From the NCBI GenBank assembly GCA_025930495.1, contig JAICOU010000001.1, positions 11,867 to 75,866 on the forward strand: a stretch of 64,000 bases of DNA, given 5' to 3'. This stretch comes from Nitrososphaeraceae archaeon. Its GTDB lineage: Archaea > Thermoproteota > Nitrososphaeria > Nitrososphaerales > Nitrosopumilaceae. The number at the start of each line of letters is the position of its first letter. Within the stretch, counting starts at the first letter, position 1. Shown piece after piece: positions 8,553 through 23,330 of this stretch. Under the pieces are notes generated by a model, which saw only the letters and a program-made list of their open reading frames with translations, ran no database searches and was not told the origin of the DNA. Position numbers and translations under genes: made by a program.

Positions 8553-9341
8553 TTATTCAGATTTTTTTATTCGGTAGAGATTTTTATCTAGTCGTTTTTT
8601 GGCAAATTTGTAGTAATCAGGTACAATTTCAAATCCCAAATATTTTCTATTCATAGATTTGCTTACTACAGCTACTTGTCCAGATCCAAGAAAAGGATCT
8701 AAAACAATATCTTGTTTTTCGCTGGAGTAGTGTAGTAATTTTTCAATTAATTCAGCAGGAAGTTTGGTGGGAGTTTTTTCATCGCCAGTCCAATATTCAC
8801 GCTTAATTTCCCAGACATCCTCTTTATCTTTATAATGTAAGCTACGTCCTTCATTTGTTTTAGAATTTTTTTCAAATCTGGAAAATGGGAAAAATTTTCT
8901 TTGTTTATCATTTTTACAAACATAAAGACAGTGATAGTGGGAAGTGACAAATTTCTTTTTTGTTACAACGCCAAACTGATATTTCCATATTATGTGATTT
9001 ATGGTAGTAAATCCAACATCATCTAATGCTTTTAGAATATCTTTGAGATTATTCCAGCCTGAAAAAACATACATGCTGCCAGAGTCTTTAAGAATACGAA
9101 ATGCCTCTTTCATCCAATCAAATGTGAAATCATAGTAATCGATAGCTTTGATCTCATTGTATCCTTGCATTACCCTGGAAGAAATTCTATTATAATTTGC
9201 CTTTGTAGCCTTGAAATTAATAGCAAATGGCGGATCAGTAATAATCAAATCAATTTTATTTTTGGGAATTAATCTCATGCCCTCAATACAGTTCATATTG
9301 TAAATTTTGTTAATTTCAATTTTTTTCATTTTTAAAAACAC
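8553..9341 (-). CDS. Site-specific N4/N6 DNA methyltransferase (beta class), apparently orphan
   Basis: ITDPPF catalytic motif precedes PTKLP and the VLDPFLGSG SAM-binding motif. No restriction endonuclease is adjacent. Confidence 0.9.
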   Translation of the reverse strand: MFLKMKKIEINKIYNMNCIEGMRLIPKNKIDLIITDPPFAINFKATKANYNRISSRVMQGYNEIKAIDYYDFTFDWMKEAFRILKDSGSMYVFSGWNNLKDILKALDDVGFTTINHIIWKYQFGVVTKKKFVTSHYHCLYVCKNDKQRKFFPFSRFEKNSKTNEGRSLHYKDKEDVWEIKREYWTGDEKTPTKLPAELIEKLLHYSSEKQDIVLDPFLGSGQVAVVSKSMNRKYLGFEIVPDYYKFAKKRLDKNLYRIKKSE

Positions 9342-9380
9342 GTAGTTTGTGTAATTAATTTGTGTTAGTATTATTTTGTG

Positions 9381-9503
9381 TCACAAATAGCGTCTTTTTT
9401 CCAATTTTTCAACTCTTCTGTCATCGATATCAGCTCTTTTTTCTAACTTTGCTAACCGTCTCTCTTGTTGTTGTTCATGTTGTTTATTGGTTAGTTTTAC
9501 CAT
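9381..9503 (-). CDS. Putative 40-aa charged helical microprotein
   Basis: Manual translation MVKLTNKQHEQQQERRLAKLEKRADIDDRRVEKLEKRRYL*. It is preceded by the same junction/promoter motif as the neighbouring genes. Confidence 0.45.
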   Translation of the reverse strand: MVKLTNKQHEQQQERRLAKLEKRADIDDRRVEKLEKRRYL

Positions 9504-9551
9504 GTCTTTTCTAACTTTTGTAATAACTTAATGGTTTTGAAAGTTTAGAAG
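9504..9551 (-). promoter_or_regulatory. Shared junction/promoter motif, copy 1 (degenerate)
   Basis: Minus strand reads cttctaaactttcaaaaccaTTAAGTtatTACAAaagtTAGAAAAagac-ATG. Confidence 0.5.
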
Positions 9552-9631
9552 CTAAATCAAATCTTCTTTCATTTTATCAAATTCGTTTTTACTGATTTCA
9601 CCTTTGGCATATCTTTCTTTTAGAATATCAA
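9541..9631. repeat. 91-bp direct repeat, copy 1 (SHOCT-coding 3' end plus flank)
   Basis: Matches 9961-10051 at 86 of 91 positions by manual alignment (offset 420 bp). Confidence 0.9.
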
Positions 9632-9923
9632 AAGCAATTGAATTTGGTTTTTCATCAGTACTGACATCTGTTTTTTGATGTTTTTCACAAGTCAAGACAT
9701 GCTTTTCAAGATTCTCCGAACTTACAGTCTTAAAATCACAGTATTTACAAATCCATGATTCTTTATTTTTTGTACCCTTGTAAAATATTAGCAATCCAGA
9801 TATTATCAACAGTATTGCCAACCCGACAAAAACTTGAGGCACATATTCTACTGAGGATGCATAAAGGAAAAATACTCCAATTAATGCCAGAAAACTACCC
9901 ATTCCAAGTAAAACGAATTTCAA
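9552..9923 (-). CDS. Membrane protein with zinc-finger-like motif and C-terminal SHOCT domain
   Basis: Two N-terminal TM helices, CKYC...HVLTCEKH, and DILKERYAKGEISKNEFDKMK (SHOCT pattern). TTG start. Confidence 0.7.
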   Translation of the reverse strand: MKFVLLGMGSFLALIGVFFLYASSVEYVPQVFVGLAILLIISGLLIFYKGTKNKESWICKYCDFKTVSSENLEKHVLTCEKHQKTDVSTDEKPNSIAFDILKERYAKGEISKNEFDKMKEDLI

Positions 9924-9971
9924 TAATTTTCTAAGTCTTGTATTGACTTAAGGATTTAGGAAGTTTAGAAT
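9924..9971 (-). promoter_or_regulatory. Shared junction/promoter motif, copy 2
   Basis: Minus strand reads attctaaacttCCTAAATCCTTAAGTcaaTACAAgactTAGAAAATta-TTG. Confidence 0.6.
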
Positions 9972-10051
9972 CTAAATCAAATCTTCTTTCATTTTATCAA
10001 ATTCTTCTTTAGTAATTTCACCTTTGGCATATCTTTCTTTTAGAATATCAA
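9961..10051. repeat. 91-bp direct repeat, copy 2
   Basis: Near-identical to 9541-9631. Confidence 0.9.
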
Positions 10052-10487
10052 GTGGTGAATCTTTTTTTGGTTCTGATCTCTGCAAAGATTGGTAAGATGG
10101 CTGAGATATGCCAAAATAAGCAATAACATGTGGACGCCACATATACCACAATACAAAGACATCAAGAATTATGTTTAGGATAGAAAATGGATTTCCTACT
10201 ATTGATGCCAACCCCATTACCAAACCTATTACTGAAAGTACAATGATAGTCATCCGTCCCCAGGGCTTGCCAGAAAATAATGCACCGGCAATCACAAATT
10301 CAATTACTGCAAGGATACCAAAGATTATCAAAAATAAGCTACCAAATCCAGCAGCCATCATACCCATGTAACCCATACTTCCACTTACGCCAAGCATTGC
10401 AGCCCCCATTACGGCCATAACCAGTGATGCTACACCACCAATTAGATGTAAAATTCCAAGAACTGTAATGCCAGTAGGTCTGTCCAC
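9972..10487 (-). CDS. Four-TM membrane protein with C-terminal SHOCT domain
   Basis: RPTGITVLGIL...KPWGR membrane domain and DILKERYAKGEITKEEFDKMK. GTG start. Confidence 0.75.
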   Translation of the reverse strand: MDRPTGITVLGILHLIGGVASLVMAVMGAAMLGVSGSMGYMGMMAAGFGSLFLIIFGILAVIEFVIAGALFSGKPWGRMTIIVLSVIGLVMGLASIVGNPFSILNIILDVFVLWYMWRPHVIAYFGISQPSYQSLQRSEPKKDSPLDILKERYAKGEITKEEFDKMKEDLI

Positions 10488-10527
10488 GATTTTCTAAAAA
10501 TTGTATCCACTTAAGGATTTAGAGAGT
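10488..10527 (-). promoter_or_regulatory. Shared junction/promoter motif, copy 3
   Basis: Minus strand reads actctCTAAATCCTTAAGTggaTACAAtttTTAGAAAATc-GTG. Confidence 0.6.
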
Positions 10528-11484
10528 TTATGGACTGTTTGGATCAGTAGGATCTGTTCCATAGACACGTTCATCATAGTCACTTAATCCATCCCCATCA
10601 GTATCAATATTCAATGGGTTCGAACCAAATGTATTAACTTCAAATCCGTCACTTAGTGTATCTCCATCTGTATCAGCAATCAATGGTTCTGTTCCATGTA
10701 CGTTAACTTCGTCTCCGTCACTTAGTGTATCTCCATCTGTATCAGCAATCAATGGTTCTGTTCCATGTACGTTAACTTCGTCTCCGTCACTTAGTGTATC
10801 TCCATCTGTATCAGCAATCAATGGTTCTGTTCCATATCCTACAAGTTCGTCATAATCACTCAGCCCATCATTATCAGTATCACCACTCAATGGATTTGTT
10901 TGATGTATGGTTACTTCGTCATAATCACTTATGCCATCTCTATCAGTATCGTAAAAGAATGGATCTGTTCCATATCTAATTTCGTCTCCGTCACTTAGTC
11001 CATCATCATCAGAATCAGCATCTCTTGGATTAGTTCGGTATTGATCAATTTCGACAAAGTCATTTAATCCGTCTCCATCAGTGTCAGGATTATCTGGATC
11101 TGTTCCATATCCTATAGTTTCATCATAATCACTTAGTCCATCTCCATCAGTATCTAGCGTACAACCAGTTTCATCTACATATTGCCATGGTGGTGTATTT
11201 GGACATGCATCTATACCATCTAAAACCCCATCATTATCAGAATCAGAATTGCATGCTGCAGCGGTATTATCTGGAATACATGCATCATTTGGGGCAGAGT
11301 CATATCTGTCTAGTTTGCCGTCATTGTCTGCATCGCCACAACCTACAGCACTTTCGGCATTTGGATTTTTTGGCTTGCTGCATGCATTGTCTTTTTCACC
11401 ACTTGAAGGAATGGCCAATGCGGGAGTAACAATGCCAGATACCAGTATTAATGCAAATGTAAAAAGTACAAGGTTACTTGTCAT
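10528..11484 (-). CDS. Secreted acidic protein with thrombospondin type 3-like Ca-binding (DTDGDGLSD) repeats
   Basis: N-terminal signal peptide followed by many D-[TS]-D-x-D-G-L-S-D repeats with GT-[DEN]-P spacers. Confidence 0.8.
10646..10835. repeat. Perfect 69-bp tandem repeat (about 2.75 copies) inside the TSP3-repeat gene
   Basis: Unit starts at 10646, 10715 and 10784 and encodes [23 protein letters not shown]. Confidence 0.92.
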
Positions 11485-11699
11485 TTAAAAAATATGAAAT
11501 TACAAAATAAATAAAGATGATCTTTTGCAAGGAATCAATATTACATATTTCAAAAGGGAGTTGATAGTAGTTCAAAGATTAAAACAATAATTTTAAAATC
11601 AAGACTGTTTCCTCGTTTAATAATGTCGTGGAACAGTGTTTTTTGCTAAAATTCAGTCAACCAATAAATCCTGAATATATTCAATCAAGTCGGTCTTAA

Positions 11700-14213
11700 T
11701 TGAAATTTTCATGTCCAAAATGCAAATCCAAATTAGAGATACAAAAAACATTCAACAAAAAAATGCACATATCGTGTGACAGTTGCGGTATTGAAGATCT
11801 GCTTGAGTTTTCAAAAAATATTGACGAGGTATTCCTAGAATTTCTTTCAAGATTTGATGAGGGGCTTGTTACAAAAAAAGGAATTTCAAAAGACCTGAAA
11901 GATGAAGGGATCATCAGGGACGAAAAAGAAATCAAAGATATGATTGGAAAAAGCAATCCAGATAAAATTACGGAATCAATTCTTTTCTCAAAAAAAGACT
12001 ATATCTCACAATACAAAGTTCTAAAAAATCCTGAGCCTAAAATGGGCAATAATGTGGAAGATTTGGGATTAGACGAACCAATAAGTGATTACTTGAAAGA
12101 CATTGGAATCAAACAGTTTTACAAATTTCAGGAGGAGTCAATTGAAGAAATATCATTTGGAGAAAATGTGGTAATTGAAGCACCTACAGCGTCAGGCAAG
12201 ACAGAGGCATTTTTGATTCCAGTGATTCAAAAAATAAAAAAAGAATCAAGTGATGTCAAAGGAGTATTTGCAGTATTTGTTTATCCAACCAAAGCTCTTT
12301 CACGGGATCAACATCCAAAAATCCTAAAGTTTGCAGAAAAAATCGGAGTAGGTGCACAAGTCTTTGATGGAGATACAAACCAGATGGAACGAAAAGAAAT
12401 TTTAGAGAATCCTCCACATATACTGATTACAAATTTTGATGTTTTACATTACCATCTTTGGCACCAAACAAAATTTGCATCATTGCTTTCAACGATAAAA
12501 GTTTTGGTCGTAGATGAAGCGCATGTGTACTCAGGAATTTTTGGATCTAATGTTCATTATATTATAAAAAGATTGAAACGAATTTGTAGTAACAAAATAC
12601 AATTTGTTGCAGCATCTGCAACTCTAGAAGATGCCAAAAACTTTTGTGAGCAATTATTTGGAGTAAAGATGAAGATCATTCACGGTTCTGGCAAAAAAGG
12701 ACAAACAGATTTTGTAATGTTATTTCCGTCACTTAGAACTCAACGTGCGTTAATGGTTGATTTGACAAAGAAAATGACTGAAAAAAATCACAAAACAATG
12801 GTATTCAACAACTCACATCTTAACTCAGAGCTTTTAGCAATACAGGCAAGAAAACAAAAAGTCAACATCAAAGTTCACAGGGCAGGTCTAATGGCAAATT
12901 ATAGAAAATCAGTAGAGCAGGAATTCAAAGACGATAAACTGCAGGCTATATCATGCACTCCTACACTTGAGCTTGGGATAGATGTGGGAAATGTGGACTG
13001 TGTGATTTCATCCACCATTCCTGTGAATAGATTAATTCAAAGAATTGGCAGGGCAGCAAGAAAAGGACAGCGAGGATACGCATTTTTGGCGCTTGGAAAT
13101 GATCCTATTTCACAGTACTACAAGAACCATCCTGAAGATTATTTTGAAGATGTTGAAAAAACATACATCGATCCAAAGAATCCATTTGTAGAAGAATTTC
13201 AGGTATTGGCAATGGCTTGTGACAAACCAATTTCCAAACACGAGTTAAAAGAACATGAGAAAGTAATAGAAGATCATCTAAAGAAAGGAACCCTGCTACT
13301 TTACAATAACAGAATAATACCAAATTTTGACAAAATTACTTCTTTGCTAAATGATTACAGCATAAGAGGGATTGGAAAGTCAATAGATATTTTCTTAAAT
13401 GAAAAGAAAGTCGGAGACAGAATTCTTCCAATTGCTCTAGAAGAACTTCACAAAGATGCAATTTACTTTCTTGCAGGAACTAGATACAAGGTAAAAGAAT
13501 TTGGATATCCTCAAAGAAATTTTGCAAGACTGGAGAGAATTTCCAGAGACTATCCATATTACACTAAAGCATTAACAGAAGAATGGCCAACAATTGAAAC
13601 TGTTTTTGAGAAGAGAAAAGCATACGGAGTAGAAATTGCATTTTGCAAACTACACATACAAAAGAAAGTCTATGGTTATGTCAACATTGAACTAGGACAA
13701 GAAATTACACAGGGGCAAAAAGTTTTACTTGACACCCCGTTAGAGTATGACTTTATCACAAAAGGAATTGTATTTCATGCACCAAGACCAATCAAAGAAA
13801 TCAAAAAAGCAGAAGATGAAGACTACACAGAGGCAAGTGGATATCATGCCACAGAACATGTTGTAATTGAAGGTAGCAACATGATAACAGGAGGCGTATC
13901 TCAAGATTTAGGTGGAATATCTCTGGGAACTTCGGGCTTAATTTTCATCTATGATGGGGCAATTGGAGGAAATGGTGCAAGTAAGGCACTATTTGATAGA
14001 TTTGAGAGGGCACTTGAGCGAAGCATGTTCATAGTAAAAGAATGCCCATGTCAAAATGAAGCAGGATGCCCACGTTGTACATTTTCATATAGATGTGGAA
14101 ACAACAACGAGTTCTTACACAAATATTCTGCATTAGAAATTCTTCAAAGGATTAATGACGGTGAAGAGACCAAACTAGTAGAACCTACTGAAGACGACAG
14201 ACCACTAGTGTAA
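11700..14213 (+). CDS. SF2 DEAD/DEAH helicase of the Hrq1/MrfA family with DUF1998 C-terminus and N-terminal Zn ribbon
   Basis: APTASGKT, DEAH, SAT, TLELGIDVG and QRIGRAAR motifs. C-terminal CPCQNEAGCPRC and N-terminal CPKC...CDSC. Confidence 0.88.
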   Translation: MKFSCPKCKSKLEIQKTFNKKMHISCDSCGIEDLLEFSKNIDEVFLEFLSRFDEGLVTKKGISKDLKDEGIIRDEKEIKDMIGKSNPDKITESILFSKKDYISQYKVLKNPEPKMGNNVEDLGLDEPISDYLKDIGIKQFYKFQEESIEEISFGENVVIEAPTASGKTEAFLIPVIQKIKKESSDVKGVFAVFVYPTKALSRDQHPKILKFAEKIGVGAQVFDGDTNQMERKEILENPPHILITNFDVLHYHLWHQTKFASLLSTIKVLVVDEAHVYSGIFGSNVHYIIKRLKRICSNKIQFVAASATLEDAKNFCEQLFGVKMKIIHGSGKKGQTDFVMLFPSLRTQRALMVDLTKKMTEKNHKTMVFNNSHLNSELLAIQARKQKVNIKVHRAGLMANYRKSVEQEFKDDKLQAISCTPTLELGIDVGNVDCVISSTIPVNRLIQRIGRAARKGQRGYAFLALGNDPISQYYKNHPEDYFEDVEKTYIDPKNPFVEEFQVLAMACDKPISKHELKEHEKVIEDHLKKGTLLLYNNRIIPNFDKITSLLNDYSIRGIGKSIDIFLNEKKVGDRILPIALEELHKDAIYFLAGTRYKVKEFGYPQRNFARLERISRDYPYYTKALTEEWPTIETVFEKRKAYGVEIAFCKLHIQKKVYGYVNIELGQEITQGQKVLLDTPLEYDFITKGIVFHAPRPIKEIKKAEDEDYTEASGYHATEHVVIEGSNMITGGVSQDLGGISLGTSGLIFIYDGAIGGNGASKALFDRFERALERSMFIVKECPCQNEAGCPRCTFSYRCGNNNEFLHKYSALEILQRINDGEETKLVEPTEDDRPLV

Positions 14214-16908: not shown

Positions 16909-17023
16909 GCCGGGGTAGCTCAGCCTGGTTAGAGTGCCAGTTAATTGGTAAACTCTACCGGTTCTTCCAAAAAAGGCAATACTCATAATCTGGAGGTCGT
17001 GGGTTCGAAACCCATCCCCGGCA
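16909..17023 (+). tRNA. tRNA-Met(CAT), elongator-type, with a 40-nt intron (16941-16980) at position 30/31
   Basis: The exons join to GCCGGGGTAGCTCAGCCTGGTTAGAGTGCCAG/ACTCATAATCTGGAGGTCGTGGGTTCGAAACCCATCCCCGGCA, a full cloverleaf with anticodon stem CCAGA/TCTGG. BHB central helix is TGCC/GGCA. Confidence 0.92.
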
Positions 17024-21078: not shown

Positions 21079-21165
21079 TGGCGCGGGGAGAGGGATTTGA
21101 ACCCACGAGTCATTGCTGACATGGGATTAGCAATCCCACGCCCTACCAAGCTAGGCGATCCCCGC
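21079..21165 (-). tRNA. tRNA-Ser(GCT) with encoded CCA
   Basis: GCGGGGA...TGGGA-TT-GCT-AA-TCCCA, long variable arm GTCAGCAATGAC, GGTTCAAATCC, ...TCCCCGC-G-CCA. One T:T mismatch in the T-stem. Confidence 0.93.
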
Positions 21166-21330: not shown

Positions 21331-21888
21331 TTAAAGTTCTATTGGATATTTTGAAAAATCTATTTCAAAACTTTTTCCCCATAGAAATTGAGGAGTTTCA
21401 TATGTGAATCCTAATGTCACCGATTGAATCAACAATAAAGAAAATGACACTTTAAGTTTTCCATAAGATATGAATTTCTTTTCGGATGTGGTTTGTACTT
21501 CGAAACCTATAGGGGTAACTTCGGTATTTACCATGAACTTCATCTTTCCAGTAAATGTTTGAGCTTCATTAACTAAAATTTTAAATTCTATGTGCGGTTT
21601 TATCGGTGGCAACGAGAATGGCATACTAAATTTAGTACCCTGAAAATCAATTTGGGTTTTGATCCCATCAATTAACGTCATGGAGAATGGTTGCGGCAGA
21701 TATTTCATCAATTCGGCAACAACAATATTTGTCACATTTCCTAAGAAATCAGCTTTTCCCTTTTTTGTAGGAATCATTTTGGTTATAAACGAAATCTCTT
21801 TTTGTATTTCTGGATTATTTGGGATATTTTGACCTAAGACATCAGCAATGAATGGTTTTACAATATCAACAAATTGATTCACAGACAT
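21331..21888 (-). CDS. Hypothetical protein (185 aa)
   Basis: Open ORF, coupled to the upstream cupredoxin gene by a TAATG overlap. No motif recognised. Confidence 0.55.
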   Translation of the reverse strand: MSVNQFVDIVKPFIADVLGQNIPNNPEIQKEISFITKMIPTKKGKADFLGNVTNIVVAELMKYLPQPFSMTLIDGIKTQIDFQGTKFSMPFSLPPIKPHIEFKILVNEAQTFTGKMKFMVNTEVTPIGFEVQTTSEKKFISYGKLKVSFSLLLIQSVTLGFTYETPQFLWGKSFEIDFSKYPIEL

Positions 21889-23069
21889 TATTCTTCAATA
21901 CCTCCTGTGATTCTAACTTCGACATGAGATGAGGTGTCTTGATTGTCATCATGCTTATCTGATTCAACTTTCTTTGCATCTTTTCCTCCTGAGCCTTTAC
22001 CGTGCAATTTTATGCCGATTGCAGTTCCTGCTCCAACAACACCAATCCCTATTGCAGCATATATCAAAATAGGTTCATCCTTGTCACTATCTACCTCATC
22101 AGGACATCCGTCAGAATCTAGATAATTATTTACGGTCTCAGATTGGATTGGACATTTGTCATAATCATCTGAAATTCCATCATTATCTGAATCTGTTATA
22201 GGCAAAGTATCTGGACACCCATCAGAATCTTGAAATCCGTTAACTGTTTCAGCTTGTGTTGGGCAAGAATCAAGGGTGTCGATTATCAAATCTCCATCAA
22301 AGTCAGTTACAGGGGGATTATCTGGGCAACCATCTTCATCTTCATATCCATTAAATGTTTCAGGAGAATGTGGGCAAGTATCAGCAGAATTTACAATTCC
22401 ATCCTTATCTGAATCTTGAAGAGGAATAACATCTGGACATCCGTCAGAATCTAGATAGTCATTGTATGTTTCAGGTACTGTGGGACATTGATCTGAATTA
22501 TCAAAAATCCCATCCTTGTCATTATCTACTTCATCAGGACAACCATCGGAGTCTTGAAATCCATTAACTGTCTCAGCTTGTGTTGGACATTGATCAACCG
22601 AATCAAAAATATCGTCACTATCTGCGTCAGTTGGTGGAATGTACTTTCCTTCTCCAACAAATATGGTTCCTGCCATCCAAGGATGTACCATACAATAGTA
22701 TGAGAATTCACCTGTAGTTGTTGGTGTCCATTCATATGAACTTCCAGCAATTACTAACCCAGAATCAAATTCTTCAGATGGGCCTAATGCTACATTACCT
22801 GCGGTGAATGTATGATCTACCGTATCTGTGTTAGAAAATATAACTTTACCACCTATAGCAACTGTTGCTTCTTTTGGAATGAAACATCCTTCTACAGTAT
22901 TTTCACATCCTGGTTTTCCAGAACCTTGTACTGAAACTATGATTACTTCTAATGAGTATTGTCCAGTCTCTACTTTGGAACCAACGCTGCCCATAGATTG
23001 TGCAAATGTATCATTAATGGAAATTACACTGACTACAACTAGTGCAAATAAAAATAAAATTTTCTTCAA
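21888..23069 (-). CDS. Membrane-anchored blue-copper (plastocyanin-like) protein fused to TSP3-like Ca-binding repeats
   Basis: Signal peptide; HTFT...FDSG...YYCMVHPWMAG type-1 Cu ligands (His, Cys, His, Met); several D.D.DGI.D..D.CP...ET.NG..D.DGCPD repeats; C-terminal TM helix. Confidence 0.85.
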   Translation of the reverse strand: MKKILFLFALVVVSVISINDTFAQSMGSVGSKVETGQYSLEVIIVSVQGSGKPGCENTVEGCFIPKEATVAIGGKVIFSNTDTVDHTFTAGNVALGPSEEFDSGLVIAGSSYEWTPTTTGEFSYYCMVHPWMAGTIFVGEGKYIPPTDADSDDIFDSVDQCPTQAETVNGFQDSDGCPDEVDNDKDGIFDNSDQCPTVPETYNDYLDSDGCPDVIPLQDSDKDGIVNSADTCPHSPETFNGYEDEDGCPDNPPVTDFDGDLIIDTLDSCPTQAETVNGFQDSDGCPDTLPITDSDNDGISDDYDKCPIQSETVNNYLDSDGCPDEVDSDKDEPILIYAAIGIGVVGAGTAIGIKLHGKGSGGKDAKKVESDKHDDNQDTSSHVEVRITGGIEE

Positions 23070-23110
23070 TAATTTTCTAAATTTTCTATAAACTTAAGGA
23101 TTTAGGAAAA
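23070..23110 (-). promoter_or_regulatory. Shared junction/promoter motif, copy 4
   Basis: Minus strand reads ttCCTAAATCCTTAAGTttatagaaaattTAGAAAATta-TTG, matching copies 2 and 3 located about 13 kb away. Confidence 0.6.
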
Positions 23111-23330
23111 AGAATAGAAGTGGGACTTATCTCTTCACTATCAATTCTTTTTCTAAGAAATATACAGTAATCTTGAAGTAAATCTTCTATCTCTTTTAAT
23201 GAAACTAAGAAACATTCATAATTTTTATGACACCAACCAGAAATTTATCTAAAAGAAATTTGTAAGTTTTGAAAGTATTTTTACCGCAAGAATTTTCAAA
23301 CAGAATTAAACATTGGGAGGTTTTATCCAT
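23111..23330 (-). pseudogene. Frameshifted, truncated remnant resembling the N-terminal core-binding region of a tyrosine integrase
   Basis: MDKTSQCLILFENSCGKNTFKTYKFLLDKFL, then a frameshift near 23237, then WCHKNYECFLVSLKEIEDLLQDYCIFLRKRIDSEEISPTSI. No catalytic domain. Resemblance judged by eye. Confidence 0.5.

Follow-up and report, generated by a model that had tools for sequence, protein, structure and literature searches.

A promoter-like motif as the probable core of self-contained leaderless gene cassettes in Nitrosarchaeum

Integrons hold small, unrelated accessory genes, toxin–antitoxin genes among them, in co-oriented tandem arrays with a conserved element at each junction, and gain and lose these genes cassette by cassette; one study reportedly found integrons in Archaea as well (PMC9668308). 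Putative mobile promoters are near-identical copies of 100–400 nt, mostly bacterial and often linked to insertion sequences, repetitive extragenic palindromic (REP) sequences or Correia elements (Nijveen, Matus-Garcia and van Passel 2012, PMC3575422). In ammonia-oxidising archaea (AOA), amoA, amoC and nirK have a TATA box and a transcription factor B (TFB)-recognition element (BRE) 23–25 nt before the ATG, and the start codon itself is the proposed transcription start site (TSS) (PMC3379541, PMC4010524). Sulfolobus TFB2 and aCcr1, finally, are examples of regulons of general-transcription-factor paralogues and of promoter-overlapping repressor boxes (bioRxiv 10.64898/2026.09.06.749720). Here we analyse a motif of ~45 nt that precedes four genes in a 64,000-nt stretch of DNA, hereafter the window, from a Nitrososphaeraceae archaeon (GenBank assembly GCA_025930495.1, contig JAICOU010000001.1, positions 11,867 to 75,866). 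The motif and its genes share with integrons the co-oriented arrays, the conserved element per junction and cassette-wise gain and loss; with mobile promoters, highly similar upstream sequence before non-homologous genes, within and between genomes; with the AOA promoters, an AT-rich box 22–25 nt before the start, an A-rich element just upstream and a start codon at the inferred TSS; and with the Sulfolobus case, a promoter subset set apart by its architecture, with repeated boxes between TATA and TSS. We conclude that the motif is probably the core promoter of self-contained leaderless cassettes in Nitrosarchaeum and a few other Nitrosopumilaceae, in which promoter and gene are inherited, gained and lost as a unit.

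The consensus of the motif, ttcCTAAATCCTTAAGTTnaTAsAAaATTTAGAAAAtta, runs up to the start codon. With an nhmmer profile of 25 instances, all in other genomes, four copies were picked out in the window, behind which the next-best score anywhere in the 64 kb was 5 bits.

9500–9543, minus strand: motif copy 1, left half decayed (TCAAAACCATTAAGT); nhmmer 21.6 bits, E=3.7e-5; abuts the ATG at 9503
9920–9963, minus strand: motif copy 2 (TTCCTAAATCCTTAAGTcaaTACAAgacTTAGAAAATta); nhmmer 42.0 bits, exact pattern match; abuts the TTG at 9923, with the A at 9924 as predicted TSS
10483–10526, minus strand: motif copy 3; nhmmer 39.5 bits, exact pattern match; abuts the GTG at 10487
23066–23109, minus strand: motif copy 4, abutting an integrase remnant; nhmmer 45.7 bits; abuts the TTG at 23069; identical in the relative L003

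The window has exactly three occurrences of the 14-mer CTAAATCCTTAAGT, all of them on the minus strand, and the 34-nt degenerate pattern CTAAATCCTTAAGTNNNTASAANNNTTAGAAAAT matches without mismatch at 9926–9959, 10489–10522 and 23072–23105 and in none of 100 shuffles. An earlier note on this DNA, made from the letters alone, had proposed a shared motif at 9504–9551, 9924–9971, 10488–10527 and 23070–23110, weaker in copy 1, lacking TACAA in copy 4 and followed by GTG or TTG starts in three of the four genes. The three exact pattern matches and four profile matches bear this out, as do the scores (21.6 bits for copy 1 vs 39.5–45.7 bits), the TAGAA of copy 4 and the starts ATG, TTG, GTG and TTG. 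Copy 4 is nevertheless a normal variant, since its TAGAA fits the family consensus TA[C/G]AA. Copy 1 resembles copy 2 partly through local duplication, because it sits in a direct repeat of SHOCT-coding end and junction:

9507–9631, unstranded: direct repeat copy A (SHOCT-coding end, 3′ box and motif); 125 nt, 90% identical to copy B
9927–10051, unstranded: direct repeat copy B; 125 nt, 90% identical to copy A

In the orthologous unit of copy 1 at locus L097, the left half of the motif is perfect. A contig in metagenome X9 runs at 9507 from junction 1 into the start of a 123-aa-type gene (TTATTGAAATTCGTTTTACTTG) that replaces the 40-aa open reading frame (ORF) present here, as unequal crossing-over between the 125-nt repeats would give. 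Around copy 4, k-mer depth in data sets X5 and X15 rises about 2- to 3-fold over 23079–23219 and many contigs diverge at 23059–23081 and 23105–23113; the rise and the two-edged divergence therefore indicate a repeat about 45 nt long with unrelated flanks.

The motif is set apart from the ordinary promoters of the window. Among its 70 gene starts, five have TTAAGT at −36 to −17, and four of these five are the motif copies; the profile scores over gene starts are bimodal, with about 66 other starts at 5 bits or less. A motif common before ordinary housekeeping genes, which the earlier note had named as the sign of a mere generic promoter, is not what the window shows: the profile places the motif at only 4 of about 70 gene starts. 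Since CTTAA and TAAAT are among the commonest words 18–38 nt before genes in the window, and generic promoters here share them, the left half of the motif resembles a BRE/TATA of consensus grade; the remainder is specific to the motif-led gene class.

Outside the window, an exact scan of GTDB (one genome per species) for CCTTAAGTNNNTANAANNNTTAGAAAA found 26 loci, no genome having more than three; 24 of them are in Nitrosopumilaceae and mostly in Nitrosarchaeum. An outlier labelled Bacteroidaceae scores only 19.9 bits and looks like a chance match, and one labelled Nanoarchaeota (L012), with two strong copies, may come from a mis-binned contig. In metagenomes, a scan for the 18-mer TTYCTAAATCCTTAAGTT yielded at least 120 loci, and the pooled genome and metagenome set contains at least 103 unique instances of at least 20 bits from Nitrosarchaeum/Nitrosopumilaceae (counts on n=103 below are of instances among the matches listed). 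The motif is distributed throughout the genus Nitrosarchaeum and occurs in a few other Nitrosopumilaceae.

The motif is held in register with the start codon. In 82 of the 103 instances, an ORF of 20 aa or more begins at model offset 40–45 (75 of the 82 at 41–43), and in 80% of instances the ORF start falls within ±3 nt of one fixed position, 22–24 nt past TTAAGT. The 82 in-register ORFs start with ATG (36), TTG (35), GTG (10) or CTG (1), with YA before TTG in 30/35 and a pyrimidine before ATG in 32/36, statistics that point to a Y-A initiator at a fixed position, the start codon then beginning at +1 (ATG) or +2 (TTG). The TTG starts are real, because many TTG-initiated products open with textbook signal peptides. 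With position measured from the start codon, CCTTAAGT lies at about −29 to −22 from the inferred TSS, with CTAAAT directly upstream; in weaker copies the left half is best kept and drift affects the right half. TTCTAAA-like boxes are present three times, twice in direct and once in inverted orientation.

This anatomy fits an archaeal BRE/TATA promoter for leaderless mRNA. CTAAAT would be the TFB-recognition element, CCTTAAGTT the TATA box, with its centre about 26 nt before the start, and TAsAAAATTTAGAAAA the promoter-proximal region, and a pyrimidine-A initiator 0–1 nt ahead of the start codon would give an mRNA essentially without a leader. The earlier note had also read the element as a leaderless BRE/TATA, and, as far as sequence can tell, the fixed spacing, the Y-A statistics and the published AOA promoters support it. 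Two 'RNA-Seq' runs that hold the window (X6, X12) are uninformative on transcripts, because their contigs of up to 107 kb and their even coverage of intergenic DNA behave like DNA; Rfam gave no structured-RNA family in the motif region. In one orthologous pair of signal-peptide ORFs (L079:6310–6360 and L018:6148–6170), the start codon at the fixed position is CTG in one and GTG in the other, a hint that initiation may be set by 5′-end position, with any NTG codon tolerated. Copies without an ORF at the fixed position (L148:5135–5172, L014:1–32 and L022:~2140–2180, which keeps the right half only) may be orphan promoters or may drive a non-coding or antisense transcript.

The genes behind the motif are of many kinds and for the most part small, with an enrichment for products that are secreted or in membranes, and they commonly stand in arrays. 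That of the window has four genes, all on the minus strand, flanked by a DNA methylase gene (8553–9329) and a DEAD/DEAH helicase gene (11700–14213); the 318-aa gene at its head has its own upstream region without the motif (no profile match), and copies 1–3 precede the others. Copy 4 precedes a 393-aa gene, whose signal peptide starts right at the TTG.

9381–9503, minus strand: 40-aa coiled-coil ORF behind copy 1, ATG start; kept with the motif in L097
9552–9923, minus strand: 123-aa membrane protein with a C2H2-like zinc finger and a C-terminal SHOCT domain (Pfam SHOCT 3.2e-08), TTG start
9972–10487, minus strand: 171-aa multi-pass membrane protein with a C-terminal SHOCT domain (Pfam SHOCT 2.4e-11), GTG start
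10528–11484, minus strand: 318-aa secreted protein with bacterial TSP3 (calcium-binding) repeats (Pfam TSP3_bac 9.8e-45)
21888–23069, minus strand: 393-aa secreted protein with a cupredoxin-like domain and TSP3 repeats (Pfam TSP_3 3.6e-11, Copper-bind 1.5e-3), behind copy 4, TTG start

Elsewhere, L149 has seven co-oriented copies in 5 kb, with genes for TPR, pentapeptide and secreted proteins and for a ParE toxin and its upstream partner; L005 and L002 have four co-oriented copies each and several other loci two or three. A co-oriented ORF ends within 120 nt upstream of 64/92 motifs, mostly within 30 nt, and tandem arrays in which the spacer consists of little besides the motif are common. Downstream proteins (sets of 39 and 35) have no common family: their domains include SHOCT, staphylococcal-nuclease-like (SNase), TSP3, zinc ribbons, matrixin, CAP, LEA_2, pentapeptide, Mrr, ParE, RusA, NUMOD3, DoxX and bPH, besides many unannotated families. 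By a crude hydropathy test, 31 of 64 motif-led proteins have an N-terminal hydrophobic segment vs 28 of 136 neighbouring ones (odds ratio 3.6, p=1e-4). The neighbours of the arrays are mostly housekeeping genes; the 25 most frequent families in the 136 neighbouring ORFs, each in 3 ORFs or fewer, include no recombinase, and TFIIB (2/136) and HTH_24 (3/136) were rejected as array-linked regulators, neither being convincing. One conserved motif-led gene encodes a very lysine-rich 22-aa peptide (MSKTSNKAKKRTKARDNAKSKK; L001, L053, L062, L076, L100, L106, L125 and L161), recurs in many Nitrosarchaeum genomes, in most cases with another motif copy behind it. Another, at L010:6647–6793, encodes a 48-aa ribbon-helix-helix-like protein (MAKRVTIMIDDDLDKKIREIQ...), one family only; such small proteins are candidate binders of the repeated boxes.

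At their other end, many motif-led ORFs finish in a second conserved box, TAGATTCTAAACTCT, which is the source of their stop codon. A box GATTCTAAACT, first taken for an optional 'upstream box', is the 3′ end of the preceding gene unit. The box lies within 35 nt upstream of 26/92 motifs vs 27/736 control windows and within 25 nt past the stop of 29/73 motif-led ORFs vs 39/432 other ORFs (p=5e-10); in 32 of 42 cases the ORF stop is one of the two stops built into TAGATTCTAAACT, and a T run often follows. Two such boxes stand in the array of the window, and the stop of the 318-aa gene overlaps TAAACTCT.

9540–9554, minus strand: 3′ box TAGCTTCTAAACTTT with the stop codon of the 123-aa gene; box family
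9960–9974, minus strand: 3′ box TAGATTCTAAACTTC with the stop codon of the 171-aa gene; box family

On its own, at 2 mismatches, the box was found 17 times in the window vs 16 expected, which is not significant; its significance comes from position relative to stops across loci, not from frequency in the window. The box TA(G/A)ATTCTAAACTCT, often with a T run after it, gives the stop codon and may terminate transcription; a T run past the box would suit an archaeal oligo-T terminator.

Motif, gene and box vary between genomes as a unit. A 33.9-kb contig from the soil metagenome X15 belongs to a relative of ~92% identity and lacks the whole four-gene array, while the 21–24 kb region is collinear in the same relative.

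9330–11590, unstranded: whole array as a 2261-nt presence/absence segment between methylase and helicase genes; the X15 contig joins 9329 to 11591

Homology of the window's 171-aa and 40-aa units with L025, L110 and L097 is limited to the unit: the 171-aa gene has an orthologue in L025 (81%) that is homologous from the motif edge to the stop only, with different neighbours, and the 40-aa unit in L097 has 80% identity, motif included, with homology confined to the unit. L169 has the same metallophosphoesterase gene and integrase remnant as the window, then a different islet, which opens with a motif-led pentapeptide gene. L077, L102 and L158 have in common only the motif, a 51-aa acidic ORF and TAGATTCTAAACTCTTTT, at 85–92% identity, and L062 shares with seven other loci only the 22-aa basic-peptide unit. 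Such 'unit-only' homology was seen in 32 pairwise comparisons, in about seven gene families; pairs above about 90% identity are syntenic, and housekeeping DNA at 84% identity is collinear for 5.9 kb. Homology is lost within the spacer that separates the motif from the preceding 3′ box, and orthologous units share gene-specific motif variants, so that the promoter travels with its gene. Gene order, whose fixity across relatives the earlier note had wished to see checked, is thus not fixed, as the X15 relative without 9330–11590, the neighbours in L025 and the islet in L169 attest.

Each unit would be an autonomous expression cassette made of a BRE/TATA promoter, a leaderless ORF and a stop/terminator box. 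In arrays, the 3′ box of one cassette would abut the next promoter, and the whole spacer of 40–60 nt would therefore be conserved signal; having its own promoter and 3′ box, each gene could, we propose, be expressed on its own wherever it is placed, and unit-wise gain and loss would make arrays vary between strains. The very high information content of the motif suggests, by analogy with Sulfolobus TFB2 and aCcr1, an additional specific reader, which may be a paralogue of TFB or of the TATA-binding protein (TBP) or a regulator of the TTCTAAA/TTTAGAA boxes. The promoter and terminator activity, the TSS and this dedicated factor we infer from the features above.

Several points weigh against the cassette reading. 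No ORF starts at the fixed position in 21 of the 103 instances, in some L149 cassettes the start comes 100 nt after the motif, and the 3′ box is found in only about 30–40% of units. TTG is unusual as a start of leaderless mRNAs in the systems studied to date, and the metatranscriptomes found with a Nitrosarchaeum BD3 locus cover only the neighbouring conserved gene, not the motif-led gene. The 2261-nt indel of the window has neither end at a motif edge; the X15 joint (9329/11591) has an 8-nt AT-rich microhomology instead. Core identity, moreover, is 0.72 within arrays and 0.71 between genomes, which fits selection on a consensus as well as mobility. Because these identities are equal and orthologous units can differ widely in motif score, nothing points to gene conversion or to recent bursts; the equality was also the reason to reject concerted evolution and local copying in the recent past, and the motif family looks old and held near consensus.

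The same equality, as from independent convergence, is what a pure regulon predicts, in which a composite promoter and operator would be kept by selection at each gene and gene turnover would be ordinary island flux. The reader might be a thaumarchaeal TFB/TBP paralogue or a repressor on the TTCTAAA/TTTAGAA boxes, and the three TTCTAAA-like boxes, the secreted and membrane enrichment of the cargo and the Sulfolobus precedents for TFB-paralogue regulons and for TATA-to-TSS repressor boxes (bioRxiv 10.64898/2026.09.06.749720) all agree with it. We nevertheless regard this explanation as possible but unlikely: the cargo is heterogeneous (a toxin–antitoxin pair, RusA, Mrr, NUMOD3, nucleases, proteases), homology units stop exactly at motif and 3′ box in several unrelated families, about 45 bits is far above the usual operator, and orthologues differ greatly in motif strength (39.5 vs 23.2 bits and 39.4 vs 16.8 bits). 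Of the two alternatives in the earlier note, a dedicated regulon of accessory surface genes and genes shuffled together with a portable promoter, the second is the better supported, because gene-specific motif variants go with the gene behind them and homology is lost immediately before the motif.

A more doubtful proposal is that the junction of 3′ box and motif is a recombination site that acts as a promoter in addition; cassettes would circularise and insert into junctions already there, either through a site-specific recombinase or through homologous recombination of the Campbell type. The junction stop-ATTCTAAACTCT-spacer-TTCCTAAATCCTTAAGTT...start would then be at once an expression module and a site of cassette insertion, excision and shuffling, and its arrays the archaeal counterpart of integron arrays, integrase-independent or served by an unknown recombinase. 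Arrays of up to seven co-oriented copies, with a ParDE pair, recall chromosomal integrons; imperfect direct repeats flank the units (T(T/C)CTAAAT 5′ and TTCTAAAC 3′), arrays often end in a 3′ box and then a degenerate motif without a gene, divergence points of metagenome contigs cluster at motif edges, and the X9 variant with a 123-aa-type gene start after junction 1 fits unequal crossing-over. No recombinase family, however, recurs in the 136 neighbouring ORFs, and sequence inspection gave no attC core consensus. Nor is there a conserved hairpin: the four junction folds differ, three of the four with z-scores between −0.4 and +0.75, and a structured RNA or attC-like hairpin was rejected, the folds being inconsistent and no better than shuffles except for an idiosyncratic fold of copy 3. 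Each junction has two core copies, not one, the only robust indel of the window is bounded by the 8-nt microhomology and not by motifs, and the register to the start codon is explained by transcription instead. An X9 joint from 9959 to 11594, with one boundary at a motif edge, was not used, as it comes from a contig of 3x depth with just 30 nt on one side.

The integrase remnant that ends at the motif edge also speaks for a recombination site at first sight.

23089–23330, minus strand: N-terminal remnant of a tyrosine integrase, frameshifted, ending at the 5′ edge of motif copy 4; homologues P0001–P0004

Its homologues have 52–135 aa, and P0003 runs on into the start of the tyrosine-recombinase catalytic domain; Pfam alone gave E=0.1 for the remnant, which is not significant. 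Homology to them stops at ISP(T/N)SI, and the 5′ edge of the motif lies no more than about 5 nt away, in agreement with the earlier note, which had placed the 23.1-kb motif where the remnant breaks off. The break falls at about residue 75 in the window, about 50 in L169 and about 108 in P0001, and since relatives break at other residues we take the remnant for decay beside the islet. These differing positions, and a motif that is not tRNA-like, also rule out an SSV-type att site inside an int gene.

Remnant and tRNA-Ser beside the 23.1-kb islet would equally suit a motif that is the shared promoter of a Nitrosarchaeum virus or plasmid family, with the arrays as decayed integrated remnants. RusA, NUMOD3, Mrr and toxin–antitoxin genes in the cargo, and a type IIG restriction–modification enzyme in the L169 islet, are in line with such an origin, which we still hold to be improbable: in 2.9 million viral contigs the full pattern had no exact match and the 18-mer had 21 matches of 14–20 bits only, that is, of the 18-mer alone, most arrays lie between housekeeping genes without mobile-element hallmark genes, and some motif-led genes, such as that of the 22-aa basic peptide, are conserved and syntenic in many genomes. 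That the motif is merely a generic strong promoter of the organism, as the common upstream words CTTAA and TAAAT might suggest, or a by-product of the local SHOCT duplication that holds copies 1 and 2, is very improbable in view of the low scores at the about 66 other gene starts and of copies 3, 4 and more than 100 elsewhere that precede unrelated genes.

The window as a whole has a GC content of 30–37% and a thaumarchaeal hallmark, a eukaryote-type topoisomerase IB, and its closest public relatives are Nitrosarchaeum/Nitrosopumilaceae metagenome-assembled genomes (L003 at 96% identity). A single 13-kb island covering both motif sites is ruled out by the gene content at 11.7–21 kb; the sites are separate islets, because genes for a helicase, an SDR protein, topoisomerase IB and a methyltransferase and a transglutaminase-like gene lie between them. 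A defence role of the array genes was rejected, since the SHOCT, 40-aa and 185-aa proteins had no match in PADLOC or NCBIfam. The 185-aa ORF is probably co-transcribed with the 393-aa gene, because its ATG overlaps the stop of the latter:

21331–21888, minus strand: 185-aa ORF; ATG overlaps the stop of the 393-aa gene

The methyltransferase that flanks the array (8553–9329, minus strand) is type II-like, N6/N4, with no obvious endonuclease partner, and probably starts at the ATG at 9329 rather than at the GTG at 9341. The helicase on the other side (11700–14213, plus strand) has an MrfA-type zinc-binding (MZB) domain, with BrxHI/II and DruE-like proteins as best PADLOC matches; the two genes are directly adjacent in the relative without the array. 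In-frame tandem repeats are found in the TSP3_bac gene (69 nt, 10566–11154) and in the 393-aa gene (about 102–111 nt, 22076–22632), and in the latter X7 and X9 metagenome contigs have joints that go back by 111 or 222 nt, so that repeat copy number differs between strains. A tRNA at 16909–17023 (plus strand; Rfam 47.9 bits) was missed by ARAGORN and, being 115 nt long, presumably holds an intron; tRNA introns are common in archaea. At the tRNA-Ser(GCU) (21079–21165, minus strand), X5, X7 and X9 contigs diverge exactly at the 5′ end (21165) and depth rises, which may reflect alternative islets at the tRNA or mere cross-mapping of tRNA paralogues.

AOA are abundant and ecologically important, and little is known of how their flexible genome is organised, expressed and exchanged. 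If the cassette reading holds, the motif would serve as a tag by which the flexible, surface-related genes of Nitrosarchaeum could be recognised in metagenome sequence itself, as a strong candidate promoter, and possibly terminator, for a group without genetic tools, and as a tractable case of how horizontally moving archaeal genes secure their expression. It would also point to a dedicated transcription factor or TFB/TBP paralogue, in parallel with the alternative sigma factors that define bacterial promoter classes. That mRNAs with apparently no leader open with TTG as often as with ATG bears, too, on how the thaumarchaeal ribosome chooses its start codon.

The literature searched in full text on promoters and leaderless genes of Nitrosopumilus, Nitrosarchaeum and AOA gave only notes on amo and nirK TATA boxes and no description of the motif, and a survey of thaumarchaeal integrated elements does not mention promoters. 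Unlike amo- and nirK-type promoters, the motif is near-identical over about 45 nt, the TATA-to-TSS region included, serves a small gene class and is paired with a 3′ box, whereas ordinary archaeal core promoters share only about 10–14 nt. It differs from mobile promoters in being short, about 72% identical and leaderless and in moving with its gene rather than separately, and from repeats of the miniature inverted-repeat transposable element (MITE) or REP kind in that it has no consistent fold and always points to an ORF start, in register in 80%. In contrast to the TFB2/aCcr1 case, its cargo is not one functional programme, its sequence conservation is much higher, and its reader factor is only inferred. 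As for integrons, no IntI is found by the arrays (25 most frequent neighbour families, 136 ORFs), and the one integrase remnant is co-oriented, decayed and of a different family; the attC hairpin and the R′′/L′′-L′/R′ cores (RYYYAAC ... GTTRRRY) were not found at the four window junctions; and the arrays, which are short, lie dispersed between housekeeping genes. Cassettes of integrons have no promoter of their own and are expressed from Pc, whereas here each cassette has its own promoter-like motif in register. The cassette system thus differs from promoter reuse and from integron cassettes in defining features, and our analyses suggest a previously undescribed way of packaging flexible genes.

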